Origin: a virus
Taxonomy: Duplodnaviria > Caudoviricetes
IMG/VR virus record: IMGVR_UViG_3300027921_000029
Location: 1-38,889 of that record
DNA: 38,889 nucleotides
Strand: one strand, 5' to 3'
Part shown: positions 259 through 38,889 of the stretch, piece after piece
Layout: each line of letters begins with the position of its first letter
How positions within the stretch are numbered: position 1 is the stretch's first letter
Program-made: the position numbers and the translations under genes
Notes under the pieces: model-generated
Told to the model about the DNA's origin: nothing
What the model saw: the letters and a program-made list of their open reading frames with translations, nothing else
The model's database searches: none

Positions 259-762
259 TCATCGAACACGGTTTAGAACGGCTGTCAGATGGTCTTCAAT
301 TACATCGGTAACAAGCTTCTGGTCTGAGGGAGGGAAGCCGATCAGGGGACGGGCGGGAAGGCCTGGGTGGTTTACTCGCTTGCGGTACATGCCGCCGAAC
401 TTGAGCGCTTTGGCCTTCGTCGGGGTGATGGTGTAGGGCTTGGTGCCGAAATGGTGGAGGGCGGCTTTCCAGTCATTCGACCCGAGGTGCAGGGTGTCGC
501 CATCGACCTGGTATTGGAATCGCAACAGGTCGCCGTGGTCATAGAGCATCTTCGGCTTGCGCTTGGTCTGGAGTGTCAGGGGCGACAGTTCCTTCCACTT
601 CGACCCATCCGGCGCCAGGCCTTGATCGTGCCGCTCCTGGTTCACTCGCAGCAATGATTCACCTAGGCTTCCGAGCATCTCCTGTGGCGTGGCGATCTCA
701 CGGCGCACCGCCTCAAGGGCTCGGGTCAGGTGGGAGACTTGGAATTCGATGGCGTATTGCAT
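259..762 (-). CDS. Phage virion morphogenesis protein (Mu gpG-like)
   Basis: PDGSKWKELSP…YDHGDL…HHFG…PARPLIG motifs; follows MuF; ATG at 762. Confidence 0.88.
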   Translation of the reverse strand: MQYAIEFQVSHLTRALEAVRREIATPQEMLGSLGESLLRVNQERHDQGLAPDGSKWKELSPLTLQTKRKPKMLYDHGDLLRFQYQVDGDTLHLGSNDWKAALHHFGTKPYTITPTKAKALKFGGMYRKRVNHPGLPARPLIGFPPSDQKLVTDVIEDHLTAVLNRVR

Positions 763-767
763 ATAGT
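739..767 (+). promoter_or_regulatory. Putative sigma70 promoter, antisense to the late left arm
   Basis: TTGGAA (739-744), 17 bp spacer, TATAGT (762-767). Confidence 0.45.
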
Positions 768-773
768 GGCCTT

Positions 774-858
774 GTGGTGACGTCAGACTGCGTTTCGGCG
801 CTACTGCCCAGTATCGGAACCACACCAACGCGGCCCACGGGCCGCGTTTCTATTTCTT
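774..858 (+). ncRNA. Candidate small structured RNA with a tRNA-like acceptor end
   Basis: GTGGT (774-778) pairs with ACCAC (819-823), followed by A-CCA (824-827). Internal UUCG hairpin (790-801). Promoter upstream and terminator hairpin downstream. Confidence 0.4.
827..858 (+). terminator. Intrinsic terminator-like hairpin (T-rich tail on the plus strand)
   Basis: AACGCGGCCC-AC-GGGCCGCGTT followed by TCTATTTCTT; abuts the muF stop codon. Confidence 0.6.
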
Positions 859-2130
859 GAACACCAGCCGACCTTTGCGTTGTCGGCTGAAGTAGGCTTG
901 GCGCTGGGCATCGCTCTTCTGAGTGGTCATGAACGCGGTGGAGCCGGTCCAGCCGGTGCGGCCCCACTCGAAAATGGAGACGCCGAATTCATTGCTTTCC
1001 TCCAGCTCGAACGCGCGCAGGTAACGGCGTTTCAGGCGCCAGCGGCCGTTTACGGCGTGGTCCTTCACCCAATCCCACCAGATTTCATCCGGTTCTATCA
1101 ACGTCATCGCCAGCAGGTTGACGTATTTCAGCCGCTCCGCCTTATCTGGCTTGCCGAGCCACTTGAAGTTGCCCTGCCCATCCTCAAACAGCGCCTTGGT
1201 GATGGCCAGCGTGCTACCTGCGGCATCGGTGAACGCCGCGCCGCGCTCCAGATCGGCGCCGAACACATCCAGGAAATCCGTTACCGCCTCTTCCGGAGGT
1301 GTGCCGGGAGGCAGGATTACGCGGGCCGGTACTTTCGTTGGTGCCGGTAGTGGCGGCCTTGGGATGCTGGTAGGCCACGGCTTGTCGCGCTCATTTATCA
1401 CTGCGTCATAGCCTTGCAGCGGTGGGACGGTGTGCGGCTCCAGCCAGGACTTGCCGGGGCTGTGGCCGAATCCAGGATCAATGCCAACCGGGGTGCTGAC
1501 GGTGCGCGGGTTGCTGCCGGTCTTGCCGACCACCTTCTCTTCCCATTCGATGGGCGGGGCTTCGTCCGGGCCGGTCTTGCCGGCCTTCTCCCACTCTCGG
1601 CTGGCTTCCAGGCGGGAGAGCGAATCCACGCGGCACTTGCAGCCCCAGCCGTTCTGTGGCGAGTGGGTGTCCCACCAGGGATCGTCGGCGGAGAGGATCA
1701 GGCCATCCCACGCCTGGTGCTGAAGGCGGGGATGTTCGATGCTGGTGTGGCGATAACGCCAGTAGGGGCGCAGGTGTTTGACCGCCTGCATCTGCTGGTA
1801 GCGGCCGGCGTTGTAGGCTTGAGTGATGTTGGTGTCGTAGATCACCTTGCTGCGCCAACCGGGAGAGCCGTTGTAGGCCCAGCCGTGCTTGGCGGCGATT
1901 TCCTCGAACTGCTTACGGAAGGCCGCGTAGCCGGTACCCTGTTCCTGCGCCTGGCGGATGGCGTTGTGGAAGTCTTCCAGCAAGGCATCCTGGGCGGCGC
2001 CCGCCACCACGAAGGCGTGGCTGTGCTGTTGCTCCCAGATGTCCGTCCAGCCCGAGGTCGGGAGCTGGGTTTTCTGGCGGAAGAATTCGATGGCCTGCTG
2101 GAATGGCAGGCGGGCGGGGGAGTCAGGCAT
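850..2130 (-). CDS. MuF (Mu gp30-like) head morphogenesis protein with C-terminal PBECR-like nuclease extension
   Basis: N-terminal MuF motifs (AFVVAGA, HPRLQH, PQNGWGCKCRV). C-terminal region with EPDEIW…KRRYL…GWTGSTAF…RKGRLVF. Confidence 0.85.
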   Translation of the reverse strand: MPDSPARLPFQQAIEFFRQKTQLPTSGWTDIWEQQHSHAFVVAGAAQDALLEDFHNAIRQAQEQGTGYAAFRKQFEEIAAKHGWAYNGSPGWRSKVIYDTNITQAYNAGRYQQMQAVKHLRPYWRYRHTSIEHPRLQHQAWDGLILSADDPWWDTHSPQNGWGCKCRVDSLSRLEASREWEKAGKTGPDEAPPIEWEEKVVGKTGSNPRTVSTPVGIDPGFGHSPGKSWLEPHTVPPLQGYDAVINERDKPWPTSIPRPPLPAPTKVPARVILPPGTPPEEAVTDFLDVFGADLERGAAFTDAAGSTLAITKALFEDGQGNFKWLGKPDKAERLKYVNLLAMTLIEPDEIWWDWVKDHAVNGRWRLKRRYLRAFELEESNEFGVSIFEWGRTGWTGSTAFMTTQKSDAQRQAYFSRQRKGRLVFKK

Positions 2131-2353
2131 TATTCTTAGGCGTAACGTCAAGCCTGAAGCTGCGATCTGGGTACATCTTTACCGCCTTTCTGAGAGCCCG
2201 CCGCGCCTCGTTAAAACTGGTGTATCGCACGGCCATATCCAGGTCGTTTGAAGCGCATAGGAGGCCAGGATCGTCTTCGTCGCTTGGCTGACCAAGCCAG
2301 CAAGGGCCAGGCGCGTTGACGCAAATGACGTAATCGAGTTTTTCGGGTGTCAT
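2123..2353 (-). CDS. Small hypothetical protein (76 aa)
   Basis: Overlaps both neighbours (translational coupling). Confidence 0.65.
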   Translation of the reverse strand: MTPEKLDYVICVNAPGPCWLGQPSDEDDPGLLCASNDLDMAVRYTSFNEARRALRKAVKMYPDRSFRLDVTPKNNA

Positions 2354-2634
2354 TTCTCGGCACCCCCAATATCCGCCCTACCACCAGAATCAGGCGCAAA
2401 CGGTGCGGCCTCATTTTCTTCTGCCATGACCCGCATCAAACGCTCCAGAGCGGCCAGTGTCTTGGGGCTTCTTCCACCACCACTACCAGGCCGACAGAAT
2501 TCAACCGTTACACATGCCGGTTTATCGGTCATTTGATCGAAGCCATCGCAAATCACATGCACGTCACCGTCGCCGTCCGTCCTGAGCCGCAGTTTTGCGC
2601 CTCTCGCCATATCCCCGTGGCGCTCGACTTTCAT
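2350..2634 (-). CDS. Small hypothetical phage protein (94 aa)
   Basis: ATGA overlaps with the portal stop and with the next gene; VEFC…GGGRSP motif. Confidence 0.7.
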   Translation of the reverse strand: MKVERHGDMARGAKLRLRTDGDGDVHVICDGFDQMTDKPACVTVEFCRPGSGGGRSPKTLAALERLMRVMAEENEAAPFAPDSGGRADIGGAEK

Positions 2635-4175: not shown

Positions 4176-5886
4176 CGTCCCATTCCTCATCATTGCTTCT
4201 GCCCCGGCTGGTGGAGCGGGAGCGGGTGCGGCCCCGGCCGGCCGAGGTGTATTGCCACTCGCCGCCGAATTGCGTGGCGATTGAATGCAGCATTTCCAGC
4301 GCATCCGGGCCGTCGTCGTGGCTGGCCTCAGGCCAAAACTTCAGTTGTTCAATTAGGGTGGATTGCGTGCGGTGCAGGCGGATCAGGCCGTTGGACACAT
4401 GAGGTTGCAGGCTGATGATGCGCAGCCCCTTATCCGTGGACGGCGTGACCGGCACGCCGGGGAAGGCGATACCGCGCAGCGCGGCCCGCTTCACCAGCTC
4501 GCTGAACAGAAACGCCTGGAACTGCACCGTCTCCACTGCCCAGGCCACACAGGCGTATTCCGCCTGCAAGTCGATGGCGCGGCTGATGATCAGGTCCGGC
4601 ACCCGGCGGGCGATGTCCGCCTCCACCACGTCCAGGACCATCGTTTCTCGGTTCAGCCCGCCCACCAGCAGCGCCGACGGGTCGCGCGCCGCGCCTTGCC
4701 GACCAAGGGATGGGTCGATGGAACCAAAAAACACCCAATCCGAGCGCCGATCCACCCAGAATTGCAGGGTACGGAACGGCGCATCCTCATCGTTCCCCGC
4801 TTCGTTCTGGTATTCCTGGTTGAACGAATCGTGGTTGGTCGCACGGATGGTCATCAGCCGGTACAGCGGGCGCACCTCCGGCCAGCTCATCACCGCGCCG
4901 GCCTCCATCTCCGCCTTGTGGCGGCGGTAGAAGTTCAGGGCGTCGGCCTCTGCGGCTTCCTTGGCTGCGTCGTCATCGCCACCGCTGGTGTAGAGCGCCT
5001 CCCACTTGTCCCACAGTGCCAGGTTATCCGGCCATTGCAGAATCGCCCGGAACACCCGGCGCCGCCAGCCCGGCGCCCTGGCCACCCGGTTGATCGCCGC
5101 GTCGTAGTGCAGCGACGTGCCTACCCAGAACACATCCATGCCGCCCTGGGGCGGTGCCAGGCCCAGCACGGCGGAGAGCACGAACTTCTGCGTCTTGTCG
5201 CGCTGGCCCTTGTCCTTCACGTTCTCGTCGTTCTCCAGATCGTCCAGAAACACCAAGTCCGGCCGGTACGGCCCGTGTTTCATGCCGCGCAGCTTCTTGC
5301 CGGTACCGCCGGTCCTGATCTTGATGCCGTTGCGGGTGATCGCCGTGGTGGCCTGCCACACGCGGCCCTCGCCCACCGCCTCCGGGAAGTCCTGCGCCAG
5401 GCGCGGGTTGGTGTCCAACTCCGCCTTGATCGACGCCAGCATCTCGTCGGCCTGTTCCTGGGTATTCATCACGACCGCGACCATGTGCTTGCGCGCCTTG
5501 GCGGGCAGGCCTAAGCCGGCCAGATAGTTGGCGCGGCAGACGCACCACAGCGTGCCCAGTTGCGTCTCGTAGGTCGATTTCGCTTCGCCGCGCGGGGCTT
5601 CATGCACCTCGCGGGAATCGGTGGGGCCGTCGATCAGCGCCGGCAAGCGCTGGAACACGAACTGCTGGAACAGCGAGAAATGCGGGGTCGGGACGTAGTG
5701 CGGGAAGTAGGTCTGGCAGAAGAACTGATAGTCCACGATGGCCCGCTCGCGCCGCGCCAGGCTGGCGGCGGGGTCAGTGGGGAACGCCTCGCACTCCAGT
5801 TCGATCATCTGCCGCAGTTCTTCGCCGAGCTTCGCCAGCTCCAGCTCGAACTCGCGGCGGGTGCGGATTTCTTTGGGGTCGCTCAT
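4165..5886 (-). CDS. Terminase large subunit
   Basis: Walker A-like APRGEAKST, RPDLVFLDDLE, nuclease motifs IDPSLG and HDDGPDALEM. Confidence 0.93.
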   Translation of the reverse strand: MSDPKEIRTRREFELELAKLGEELRQMIELECEAFPTDPAASLARRERAIVDYQFFCQTYFPHYVPTPHFSLFQQFVFQRLPALIDGPTDSREVHEAPRGEAKSTYETQLGTLWCVCRANYLAGLGLPAKARKHMVAVVMNTQEQADEMLASIKAELDTNPRLAQDFPEAVGEGRVWQATTAITRNGIKIRTGGTGKKLRGMKHGPYRPDLVFLDDLENDENVKDKGQRDKTQKFVLSAVLGLAPPQGGMDVFWVGTSLHYDAAINRVARAPGWRRRVFRAILQWPDNLALWDKWEALYTSGGDDDAAKEAAEADALNFYRRHKAEMEAGAVMSWPEVRPLYRLMTIRATNHDSFNQEYQNEAGNDEDAPFRTLQFWVDRRSDWVFFGSIDPSLGRQGAARDPSALLVGGLNRETMVLDVVEADIARRVPDLIISRAIDLQAEYACVAWAVETVQFQAFLFSELVKRAALRGIAFPGVPVTPSTDKGLRIISLQPHVSNGLIRLHRTQSTLIEQLKFWPEASHDDGPDALEMLHSIATQFGGEWQYTSAGRGRTRSRSTSRGRSNDEEWDDDD

Positions 5887-35971: not shown

Positions 35972-36065
35972 CGGATATTCACCATCCAGGATTCACGGCG
36001 TTTTCCCATTTATTGTTCGTCCGGAATTCAAACGCCGTTCATCCGGAAATCAAAGCCGCTTTACT
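35953..36065 (-). repeat. Right end (attR) with tandem putative transposase-binding repeats
   Basis: GTTCGTCCGGAATTCAAA (36015-36032) and GTTCATCCGGAAATCAAA (36037-36054), 22-bp period; weaker copies near 35953 and 35981; ends TACT. Confidence 0.8.
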
Positions 36066-36070
36066 GATAG
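36066..36070 (+). repeat. Target-site duplication, right copy (GATAG)
   Basis: Matches 51-55. Confidence 0.85.
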
Positions 36071-36105
36071 GCCGGGGCCGGGTGGTTGGGGTTGTATGAA
36101 GCAGT

Positions 36106-36123
36106 CATGGTTGTGTCACCTCC
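36106..36123 (-). promoter_or_regulatory. cas11c: Internal RBS and ATG for nested cas11c
   Basis: GGAGGT, 9 nt, in-frame ATG at 36108 (MTASYNPNHPAPAY), at the position expected for type I-C internal initiation. Confidence 0.7.
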
Positions 36124-37490
36124 AGGTTTGCGTCGAACGAAATAGGCTTTGATAAGGCCCATGCGGGCGTGGTTGAAAGCAGGTTGATCCTTGTCCACCA
36201 GGTCGGCGCGAAAGCGGGCAAGCGCCTGGGCCATCAAGGGTTGCGGGATGGGTAGCCCCTGCACGGCGACCTTCCACAAGGTGGCAGCGGTGGGTGCGGG
36301 CAGGTCTTTCAGGTCGCGCACCAGCGCGCCACAGACCGCCATGAACTTGGGATCATGGGCATGGCCGTGACCATCGCGGGCGACGATGGCCAGATCGGAG
36401 AACCAGGCCTCGACATGGCTGACCAGATCCTCGAAACGGCCTTCCATCCAGTCGCGGACCATGACGCGGCCAGCCGCGCCGGAAACGGTCAGAGCGTAGA
36501 AACGGTTGTTTTCTAATTCAGTCCGCTGCCCGGCGCGGATGGCATCGAGGAGACGGCGTACTGCCGCATGCGCGGCGGCTTCGGTTTGCTCCTTGGTTTC
36601 CATGCCCATCAGGAATGCCAGCGGGTCGTCTTCGAGCGGAATCGTGTCTTTGTACCAATGCGCGACCAGGGTGTTGGCGATCTTGCGGGTGTGGTTTCGG
36701 ATGAGGTCATTCAGACCGTCGACATACTTCTGGACGGCTTCTTCGCCCATGGCTGCGTTGGCGGATTGCTTAAGGCCATACGAGCCGAACGCGTCCTTGT
36801 CAAAACCGACCAGGACATCGCCCATCGCCAAGCCGCCGACACCCGATAGCCCGGTAATTTTGGGATGGGTGGCAAGTGGCTTGACGGGCATGCCGGTCAG
36901 TAAGCAGATCATCGAGCCGTTGTCGCTCGGGCTGCCGCCAAGATCGAGTTGGTCCGTAACCGGTTCGCTCGCTTCGCCGGTTCGCCGCCAGGCACGCCAC
37001 CAGGCTTGCACCTCGCTGTCCTCGCGTGGGTCGAAGCCCTTGATGCGCCAGACCATCCAGTCGCTGGGTTTGGCCCTTTGTTCAGCCAGTGCGTTGCGCA
37101 CTTCGGCCAGTCGCTCTGGGTCTTCCAGCAAGGTCGCCAGCATTTCGAGGCATGGAATCGACCCGCTCGCTTCTCGCATCAGCCGGGTAAAGAAACCGTG
37201 GCGAACTTCTGCTGTGGCTATCTTTTTCGTGTCTTCGTTGGTCTTGAACAACAAAACCGCTGTTTGAGTGGTTTCAACCAGGAAGTGCGCTTTTCCTCCC
37301 GCGTTCATGCCGTGCATGTCCGGGCAACGGGGCAACGACTTGCCGCGCTGGCCGTCGCCCAGGGGTATGGCATTCAGGAAACGTCCGTCGCTGGCCAGTT
37401 CGACGAGCCAGCGAATTTCACGGGACTTGAAGCCCGGCTCGGACTCGGACAGATGGGTTTCGGCGTAGGCAACCAGTTCTTGCAGCATGG

Positions 37491-38255
37491 TCAGGCTCTC
37501 CCCGGTTTTTTCACCGCGTCACTGCTGAAAGAGGGCACTTTCAACACACCGGCCACCACATTGGCCTCGAACAGGGAGATGTAAGGTTTGTCGCCGTCCT
37601 TCACCCACTCGCGGGAAAGATCGAACACGTCGTAGAGCATGAAGCCCAGATGCTGATCGAAGGGTGCGGGACTGGTGGGGCGGGCATCTGGGGTTTCGAT
37701 GTATTCGAAGAATGCCGGGAACTCGCGGCAGCCCAGGTAGGGTTGCTGGAAGCACTTGCCAGCCTTGGCGCGGCGCTGGAACTGGCTGTTCATCTTGCCC
37801 CAGTCGGCTGAGAAGGCGGCCTTGGGGACGATCTTTGCAGTCAGGCGGTAACGGACATTCTTCAAGGCCATGGTCTGGCGTTGGGTGCGACCTTTCTGGT
37901 CGGTGCCGAGTTCATCCTTGCCGCCATCGGCCCAGAGTGGTTGCGGCGTCTCCCGCCCATCCATCCACTTATTGAGTGTGGCCGTGCCAGGCACCCGATC
38001 TTTCACCTCGTTACGTCGCAAAGCGATATAGCGTGGCATTTCCAGCACCTCGATGCGGGTGATCTGCCAGTGGAAATAGGGGCGCATCACGCTTTCCCGC
38101 CCTTGTTGCTCGCGTTTGCCATCCCAGTAGATGGCGTCGAAGATGCCGCGCGCCGCCGAGGGGGTGATGACTGGGTAGGAGAAACGTTCGACCTTCATTT
38201 CTGGTCGGGTGAAGCAGGCCAGGTCACCCCAGACTTCCAGCGTGTGTGTCGTCAT
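37491..38255 (-). CDS. cas5c: Type I-C Cas5c (Cas5d)
   Basis: VWGDLACFTRPEMKVERFSYPVITPSAARGIFDAIYW and PYLGCREF; AAGGAGG RBS. Confidence 0.95.
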   Translation of the reverse strand: MTTHTLEVWGDLACFTRPEMKVERFSYPVITPSAARGIFDAIYWDGKREQQGRESVMRPYFHWQITRIEVLEMPRYIALRRNEVKDRVPGTATLNKWMDGRETPQPLWADGGKDELGTDQKGRTQRQTMALKNVRYRLTAKIVPKAAFSADWGKMNSQFQRRAKAGKCFQQPYLGCREFPAFFEYIETPDARPTSPAPFDQHLGFMLYDVFDLSREWVKDGDKPYISLFEANVVAGVLKVPSFSSDAVKKPGRA

Positions 38256-38266
38256 GTCGCCTCCTT

Positions 38267-38889
38267 TTATGCGATGAATACCTGCGGGCCTTCGGGCGGT
38301 GTCAGCCCGAGGGTGTCGTCGTAATGGTCGCCTTCGAGGATGAACCACGCGTCGGAGACGCCGTTGTTGGTCGTGCCGCGACGGCGAAGTTTTGCAGCGA
38401 TTAACACACCCCAGGCCGGGTGCTTCGGCGCGGGTCGGTAGATGCTGACCGCCAGCCCCTGCGCGCGGCGCATCCAGCCGCCCGAGATGCCGATTTGTTC
38501 GGCTTCGGCGCGCAAGGCCTGGAAATCGTCCCAGCGATCCACCCAGGGTACGAGCACCTGGATGGCGTCCTGGTCGATGAGCCGGTAGCCGCGCGCCACC
38601 TCGATGAAGTCCAGCGCCTGGATGGCCTGGGACAGTTCGGCGTTCTGGCTGGCAGGATCATTCAGGTCGTAGAGGCGGTGGTAGTACGCCTGAAAAACCG
38701 TTGGATCGTTGATGTCCAGGCCGCCATTCAGGCTCAGCATGGTTCGGGTGACCTCGGTGGCTTGGTAATAAGCGAATGTTGGGTAACCTCGCTTTCTCTC
38801 GTCACCCTCGTCCGGCTCAAAAACAAGCACTTCACCCAACCGGCCATTCGCGTTCATCCGCCCCTCTCGATTGCAGCGCCCGGCCGCCT
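38267..38889 (-). CDS. cas3: Cas3 helicase/nuclease, C-terminal part (starts outside the window)
   Basis: Helicase motif VI AAGRCNREG at the window edge; C-terminal YDDTLGL; upstream of cas5c. Confidence 0.88.
   Translation of the reverse strand, partial: AAGRCNREGRMNANGRLGEVLVFEPDEGDERKRGYPTFAYYQATEVTRTMLSLNGGLDINDPTVFQAYYHRLYDLNDPASQNAELSQAIQALDFIEVARGYRLIDQDAIQVLVPWVDRWDDFQALRAEAEQIGISGGWMRRAQGLAVSIYRPAPKHPAWGVLIAAKLRRRGTTNNGVSDAWFILEGDHYDDTLGLTPPEGPQVFIA

Follow-up and report, generated by a model that had tools for sequence, protein, structure and literature searches.

The window, i.e., the whole stretch of 38,889 nucleotides analyzed here, is the nearly complete record of a Mu-like, temperate phage with genes for a transposase, a transposition B protein, and a late activator as well as for components of the head and the tail. 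A leftward block of genes (lysis-terminase-portal-muF-gpG) extends to the left end of the window, and the plus strand between muF and gpG carries a predicted small RNA gene (Table 1). At the right end, behind a DNA methyltransferase gene, lie three ORFs (475, 285, and 196 aa; 36061-38857, minus strand) for which a PHROG match at 1e-5 is absent; they are possibly accessory or defence cargo.

The PBECR2 domain of the MuF protein was identified with high significance (PF18810; E value, 1.8e-27; 96.4 bits against a cut-off of 27.1), and the Pfam search of the protein returned nothing besides this domain and Phage_Mu_F. The conserved residues K323, K330, R333, R368, T398, and R418 are all there, including R333 of the helix and T398 of the strand. 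The structural model of the domain has a pLDDT of 88.6. With this model, Foldseek gave no match at an E value of 0.001 or below and VIA-align none with a Z score of at least 5; the weak VIA-align matches to colicin D (5znm; Z = 3.7; rmsd, 3.5; 83 aligned) and to 3ao9 (Z = 3.6; rmsd, 4.0; 92 aligned) were tied with unrelated rows. The domain is a predicted RNase, and we infer from their conservation that its K, R, and T residues are putatively catalytic; PBECR activity is likewise a prediction only in the available text of PMC5512222 and bioRxiv 10.64898/2026.08.28.747851.

Table 1. Features of the muF-gpG junction in the window. Subtype labels (A, B, and C) and helix names were coined in this analysis; two-sided changes were counted in 24 aligned subtype A sequences.
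Feature	Position	Strand	Remark
gpG (Phage_tail_S / Neck1)	259..762	-	start region houses the antisense promoter
-35 box TTGGAA	739..744	+	within gpG codons 7-8 of the opposite strand
-10 box TATAGT	762..767	+	overlaps the gpG start codon
Predicted small non-coding RNA, subtype A	774..858	+	~80-85 nt; ends are predictions
P1 helix	774-782 with 815-823	+	two-sided changes in 8/9 pairs
Core, nearly invariant (GUCAGA...CUGC.C..UAUC)	782..815	+	candidate protein-contact surface
P3 hairpin, UUCG loop	790..801	+	two-sided changes in 3/4 pairs
Terminal GC-rich hairpin	827-848	+	9 bp; two-sided changes in 4/9 pairs
U-rich tail	849-858	+	overlaps the muF stop
muF	850..2130	-	426 aa; Phage_Mu_F (53-168) and PBECR2 (285-425) [Pfam]

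A sequence-only reading of the window had proposed an RNA gene on the plus strand of an 87-bp gap between muF and gpG. The gap, which is non-coding, was confirmed (from the muF stop at 850 to the gpG ATG at 762), and the proposed parts were found within and beside it, i.e., a TTGGAA-17-TATAGT promoter (739-767), a helix of GUGGU with ACCAC that continues through two G-A oppositions into two further pairs, an internal UUCG hairpin, and a GC-rich terminator hairpin whose T-rich tail lies on the plus strand. Judged from the window alone, the promoter, terminator, and fold do not beat chance: one promoter was seen against 0.6 expected and one terminator against 3.4 expected, and the fold z scores were -0.97 (774-827) and -3.15 (774-858). 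It is because of the comparison with relatives that we count the element as real.

The relatives comprised the best 80 of 229 viral loci and 38 genome loci, to which 80 of 203 viral and 80 of 146 metagenome loci were added. Most PBECR2 loci have an antisense promoter ~75 to 90 nt from the muF stop and, after it, a helix, then an inner and finally a terminal hairpin. In the 24 aligned subtype A sequences, P1 begins 6 to 7 nt past the -10 box in 22 homologs, and 79.6% of its cells are paired. The two-sided changes in P1, P3, and the terminator (Table 1) exceed those in all 500 shuffles and in every slid control, both of which are biased in favor of the structure, as it was drawn from the same sequences; of the 22 pairs in these helices, 19 were also predicted by RNAalifold, independently of that drawing. 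The core of subtype A may contain a 3-bp CAG/CUG pairing without covariation, which is a guess. On this comparative evidence, positions 774 to 858 of the plus strand are a predicted small structured RNA gene, convergent with muF and with its own promoter and terminator, and the gene is conserved among relatives on the strand originally named.

A further interaction is evident in the relatives outside subtype A, in which the inner and the terminal (i.e., terminator) loops are complementary. We scored this pairing in 140 of the 167 clusters described below, having omitted 13 degenerate clusters, 9 displaced ones, and 5 without a called terminal hairpin. The mean score was 5.81 for cognate loops versus 4.22 for swapped partners, and scores of at least 6 were reached by 68 of 113 cognate pairs versus 8.2% of 12,612 swapped pairs; 49 distinct hexamers form the pairing. 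The signal is absent from subtype A, to which the window belongs (3.93 versus 3.63; p = 0.30; 27 rows, one misassigned), and the CAG/CUG duplex possible in the core of that subtype is found between the two loops in many close relatives. The RNA subtypes are interleaved on the protein tree and adjoin nucleases that are up to 86% identical, which suggests that they are interchangeable modules; a scan of protein residues against RNA subtype recovered clade structure only. Since the terminator loop takes part in covarying loop-loop pairing in most relatives, the processed form of 54 nt that the sequence-only reading had envisaged is unlikely as a general form.

The Watson-Crick helices and the loop-loop complement can be read on both strands, and the folding energy of the whole element favors neither (68/140; p = 0.2). 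The conserved structure could in principle be a segment of the late mRNA on the sense strand (a nuclease processing site or a gpG translation-coupling element), with the antisense signals being incidental. We regard this as highly improbable in view of the asymmetries between the strands. The stems contain 42 G-U versus 3 A-C cells, 16 of the 24 subtype A homologs have YUUCGG, and at least five T's within 9 nt after the terminal hairpin were counted in 90 of 140 loci on the antisense strand versus 8 of 140 on the sense strand. The promoter has also left a mark on the gpG coding sequence. Codon 8 of gpG is CAA in 46 of the 47 loci that use this -35 box, against a background of 126 CAA among 317 Gln codons, while the -35 slot starts with TTG in 0 of 10 loci with the promoter shifted upstream and in 1 of 4 loci that have lost the RNA. 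This fixation, relaxed where the promoter is shifted or lost, indicates that the promoter rather than the protein is under selection.

The resemblance to a tRNA on which the first interpretation was built did not hold up. A decoy with an acceptor stem and a CCA end would be in keeping with the length of P1, with the ACCA that follows it in the window, and possibly with an overall three-dimensional similarity to tRNA. ARAGORN found nothing, Rfam gave no significant match in the window, and no cloverleaf is formed. The NCCA after P1 occurs in 1 of 24 homologs and in 1 of 36 distinct cores, in both cases the sequence of the window itself, and the proposed TACT/AGTA hairpin shows two-sided changes in 0 of 4 pairs, two of which are broken in 11 and 7 of the 24 sequences. 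We accordingly give a tRNA-like decoy very little credence. An anticodon-loop mimic was also rejected: CUGCA recurs in close relatives, yet the loop covaries with the terminator loop and has 49 variants. Rfam matches at the element were likewise absent from 20 loci at the gathering threshold and from 16 loci at an E value of 0.05 or below. Away from the element, Rfam matched anti-hemB (RF02837) at 5241-5334 of locus L003 and sRNA-Xcc1 (RF02221) at 1845-1932 of locus L288.

The absence of a downstream immunity protein, another point of the sequence-only reading, is borne out, gpG being the next gene after the non-coding gap. On the other side of muF, the junction with the portal gene accommodates variable insertions (up to ~930 nt in relatives) and in the window holds two small ORFs (76 and 94 aa; 2123-2634, minus strand) without a Pfam or PHROG match. 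As candidate immunity proteins these were rejected, with no homolog in 80 related loci and with 14 of 53 loci having no room for such ORFs. The ORFs inserted after muF in some relatives were rejected as well; they are mostly unrelated to one another, even beside nucleases that are 88 to 90% identical. Small-ORF insertions between the muF stop and the RNA terminator, none of which disrupts the RNA, were seen in L008, L089, L216, L219, L224, L066, and L172; those of L216 and L219 have a common C-terminal half, and the others are unrelated. In two loci (L044 and L080), a long MuF protein carries an extension other than PBECR2, and behind its gene there is a gap the size of an ORF (595 and ~200 nt, respectively) in place of the RNA, a layout that resembles the classical toxin-immunity arrangement.

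The RNA follows the state of the nuclease. PBECR2 profile matches were obtained at 259 loci, of which 239 were complete (20 were dropped), and these formed 167 clusters at 90% identity. Clusters were called intact or degenerate by the equivalents of K323, R333, and T398, with seven His-type clusters assigned by hand as intact and L077 as degenerate. Among clusters in which gpG was found, a muF-gpG gap of at least 60 nt, used as a proxy for the RNA and not as proof at every locus, was present in 126 of 126 intact clusters versus 0 of 12 degenerate ones (Fisher p = 1.6e-17, with clusters treated as independent). The gaps of intact clusters measured 68 nt at minimum and 102 nt at the median (nine exceeded 150 nt), and those of degenerate clusters ranged from -1 to 48 nt. 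Degenerate clusters occur in several lineages and require 11 changes on the tree (FastTree; 161 columns); the independent pairs on well-supported branches agree in 5 of 5 cases (sign test p = 0.0625, significance being out of reach with five pairs).

Promoters with at least 9 of 12 matches were found in 84 of 153 intact clusters versus 0 of the 14 others. L167, which fails the automatic rule, has the element and no gpG; we read its nuclease as intact, with the Arg displaced by a short insertion. Among the 28 intact clusters without gpG, 24 pass the promoter or the loop-loop threshold, and the hairpins of the other four were recognized by eye only. The combination of an intact motif and a deleted spacer was not seen in any cluster (0/126), though a single deletion would suffice to produce it, and this fits the RNA being needed while the enzyme is active. 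The reverse combination (i.e., a degenerate nuclease with a retained RNA) was likewise absent from the clusters, and either part may have been lost first. A scan with the subtype A core yielded 32 viral matches, many of them on already-sampled contigs, of which 30 lie behind a PBECR2 with intact K..R; the remaining two, considered as orphan RNA copies, lie across the start of an unrelated gene and lack a P1 helix, and they were attributed to chance. The sequence-only reading had made structural conservation linked to the nuclease domain a test of its proposal; the linkage is there, in that the RNA tracks the putative catalytic residues. The comparison shows that the RNA gene is evolutionarily tied to the putative active site of PBECR2.

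The element is also retained where its surroundings have changed. It is intact at a distance of 300 to 900 nt from the muF stop in four loci (L008, L089, L216, and L219), and it is kept in two loci in which gpG does not follow (L013 and L066); thus, it is not bound to either muF or gpG as a fixed element in cis. These displaced copies bear on a type I-like explanation, under which the antisense transcript, or its transcription, would lower leaky late mRNA and hence MuF in the lysogen, with the fold serving for stability. In its favor, the RNA would pair along its whole length with the late mRNA at the muF-gpG junction, the promoter and the gpG start overlap, and the need for such control would likewise end once the nuclease dies. 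However, the RNA ends at the muF stop codon and leaves the muF start and coding sequence uncovered, and it is retained when displaced; the covarying loop-loop pairing and the invariant core would be unnecessary for antisense pairing. We consider this explanation distinctly unlikely.

Several named phages fit the same pattern. In Mu, the PBECR of which is called inactive in the available text of PMC5512222, the F and G genes overlap, and they do likewise in MP22 (D3112-like); Fc02 and a Ralstonia phage have a degenerate PBECR2 with a 1-bp gap (Fc02) or a remnant. Because Mu, MP22, and Fc02 lack an F-G spacer, the RNA was probably overlooked. The complete element is present in RcapMu, RR1-B, and RcWaterboi, and the nuclease domain of RcapMu is intact. 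Five short motifs of the RcapMu RNA had 0 matches among the 422 putative small RNAs of R. capsulatus SB1003 in Table S1 of PMC5546546; since the library is shallow, this speaks only mildly against the RNA being strongly expressed in the lysogen.

We propose, with a probability of roughly 0.55, that the RNA is an antitoxin for the virion RNase PBECR2 and takes the place of the usual immunity protein. The folded RNA would bind the predicted RNase at the end of MuF and keep it in check. It would be driven by a sigma70-type (i.e., host-type) promoter that is presumably independent of the late activator, and by virtue of this independence the lysogen would contain it, and it would precede the late synthesis of MuF. 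MuF would be packaged and injected, as proposed in the available text of PMC5512222 and PMC5576092. The RNA would then protect the cell in which the phage is produced, and possibly also the lysogen when related virions arrive, whereas MuF entering a naive cell would meet no antidote RNA. Recognition is probably by shape, as the loop sequences are freely variable and the subtypes swap among nucleases of up to 86% identity.

The main rival of this proposal is that the RNA is a positive partner of the nuclease, i.e., a cofactor, scaffold, guide, or dedicated substrate in a ribonucleoprotein of which either part is useless alone. Such a role would explain the two-way co-occurrence equally well, and it would suit the invariant core of subtype A and the suggestion in the available text of PMC5512222 that PBECRs may spare host tRNA and rRNA. 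The same source suggests mRNA or crRNA as the targets of PBECRs, not host toxicity, which counts against an antitoxin. If the RNA were a positive partner, however, its deletion should leave spacerless nucleases that look intact, and none was seen (0/126). A free, variable segment that could serve as a guide is not apparent, as the variable loops are paired within the RNA, and the host-type antisense promoter suggests expression separate from the late operon. We judge a positive role to be fairly unlikely. The antitoxin is favored because spacerless intact nucleases were not found, because no immunity ORF is conserved, and because the host-type promoter would act before late synthesis.

A second RNA class (~105 to 130 nt) was observed in L048, L056, L062, L072, and L280-L338. 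It also lies behind the muF stop on the opposite strand, has its own promoter, a highly conserved 5' motif, and a covarying pseudoknot (e.g., UCUCCC/GGGAG, UCUCGC/GCGAG, and UCUGCC/GGCAG), and adjoins MuF proteins whose C-terminal domain is of another, K-x4-H kind without a significant match in Pfam; an Rfam match at the element is absent in the scanned loci. Three loci (L304, L305, and L307) are without the spacer, and L304 has lost a strand Ser that is kept by its RNA-bearing relative L295. We tentatively suggest, at somewhat less than even odds, that the virion BECR RNases of temperate phages are widespread polymorphic toxins with compact non-coding RNA immunity and a separate RNA class for each family (i.e., a kissing-loop RNA for PBECR2 and a larger, pseudoknotted one for another MuF domain), in which the terminator hairpin is a structural part, too.

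An RNA tied to MuF or PBECR is not described in the literature covered, which included the main text of PMC4158056 and PMC5737381, with supplements and subscription journals mostly outside its scope. The RNA family is real, apparently undescribed, and evolutionarily bound to a nuclease of the phage virion. Many virion and polyvalent proteins of phages contain PBECR domains, and the RNA gene offers a handle on their activity and on the self-protection of the producer. If the RNA is an antitoxin, RNA antitoxins would reach beyond anti-phage defence to phage-delivered polymorphic toxins. RcapMu, as a prophage of a laboratory strain with a complete copy, is a convenient test system.

The protein side of the pair resembles systems that are already known. 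As in MuF polymorphic toxins (PMC5576092), the head module of a temperate phage encodes an N-terminal MuF domain joined to a predicted toxin domain at the C terminus, but the small downstream immunity ORF is absent here; the available text of that source makes no mention of an RNA partner. The conserved Arg in a long helix and the Thr in a late strand correspond to the described PBECR configuration (PMC5512222), and an RNA or immunity factor for PBECR2 is not described in the available text of PMC5512222 or bioRxiv 10.64898/2026.08.28.747851. In AbiF with its non-coding RNA (PMC12373285) and in AvcID (PMC10511110), an effector protein likewise has a non-coding RNA of its own, according to the available text of both sources. 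They differ from the present pair in enzyme fold (AvcID is a deaminase) and in their defence role, and neither has an Rfam or sequence link to our RNA. The fold of the AbiF enzyme is HEPN.

With respect to toxin-antitoxin systems, the overlap with muF is confined to the 3' spacer and the last muF codons, unlike in type I, where it involves the toxin start or coding region. Type III antitoxins are encoded upstream of the toxin as tandem repeats, are co-transcribed with it, and are cut by it. In contrast, the RNA described here is single-copy, lies downstream on the opposite strand, and has its own promoter and terminator, and the Rfam antitoxin models gave no match to the element. The BECR-type domain is, moreover, fused to a virion protein and is not an anti-phage toxin such as ToxN, CptN, or TenpN. 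For the relatives outside subtype A, covariation (68/113) supports a crossing, pseudoknot-type pairing of the type III kind; in the subtype of the window, only the invariant CAG/CUG pairing is possible. In its proposed mode of action, the pair would resemble the type III systems ToxIN, CptIN, and TenpIN, in which, as described in the available text of PMC5086642, PMC8860590, and PMC12283969, a protein RNase (here a predicted one) is combined with a non-coding RNA.
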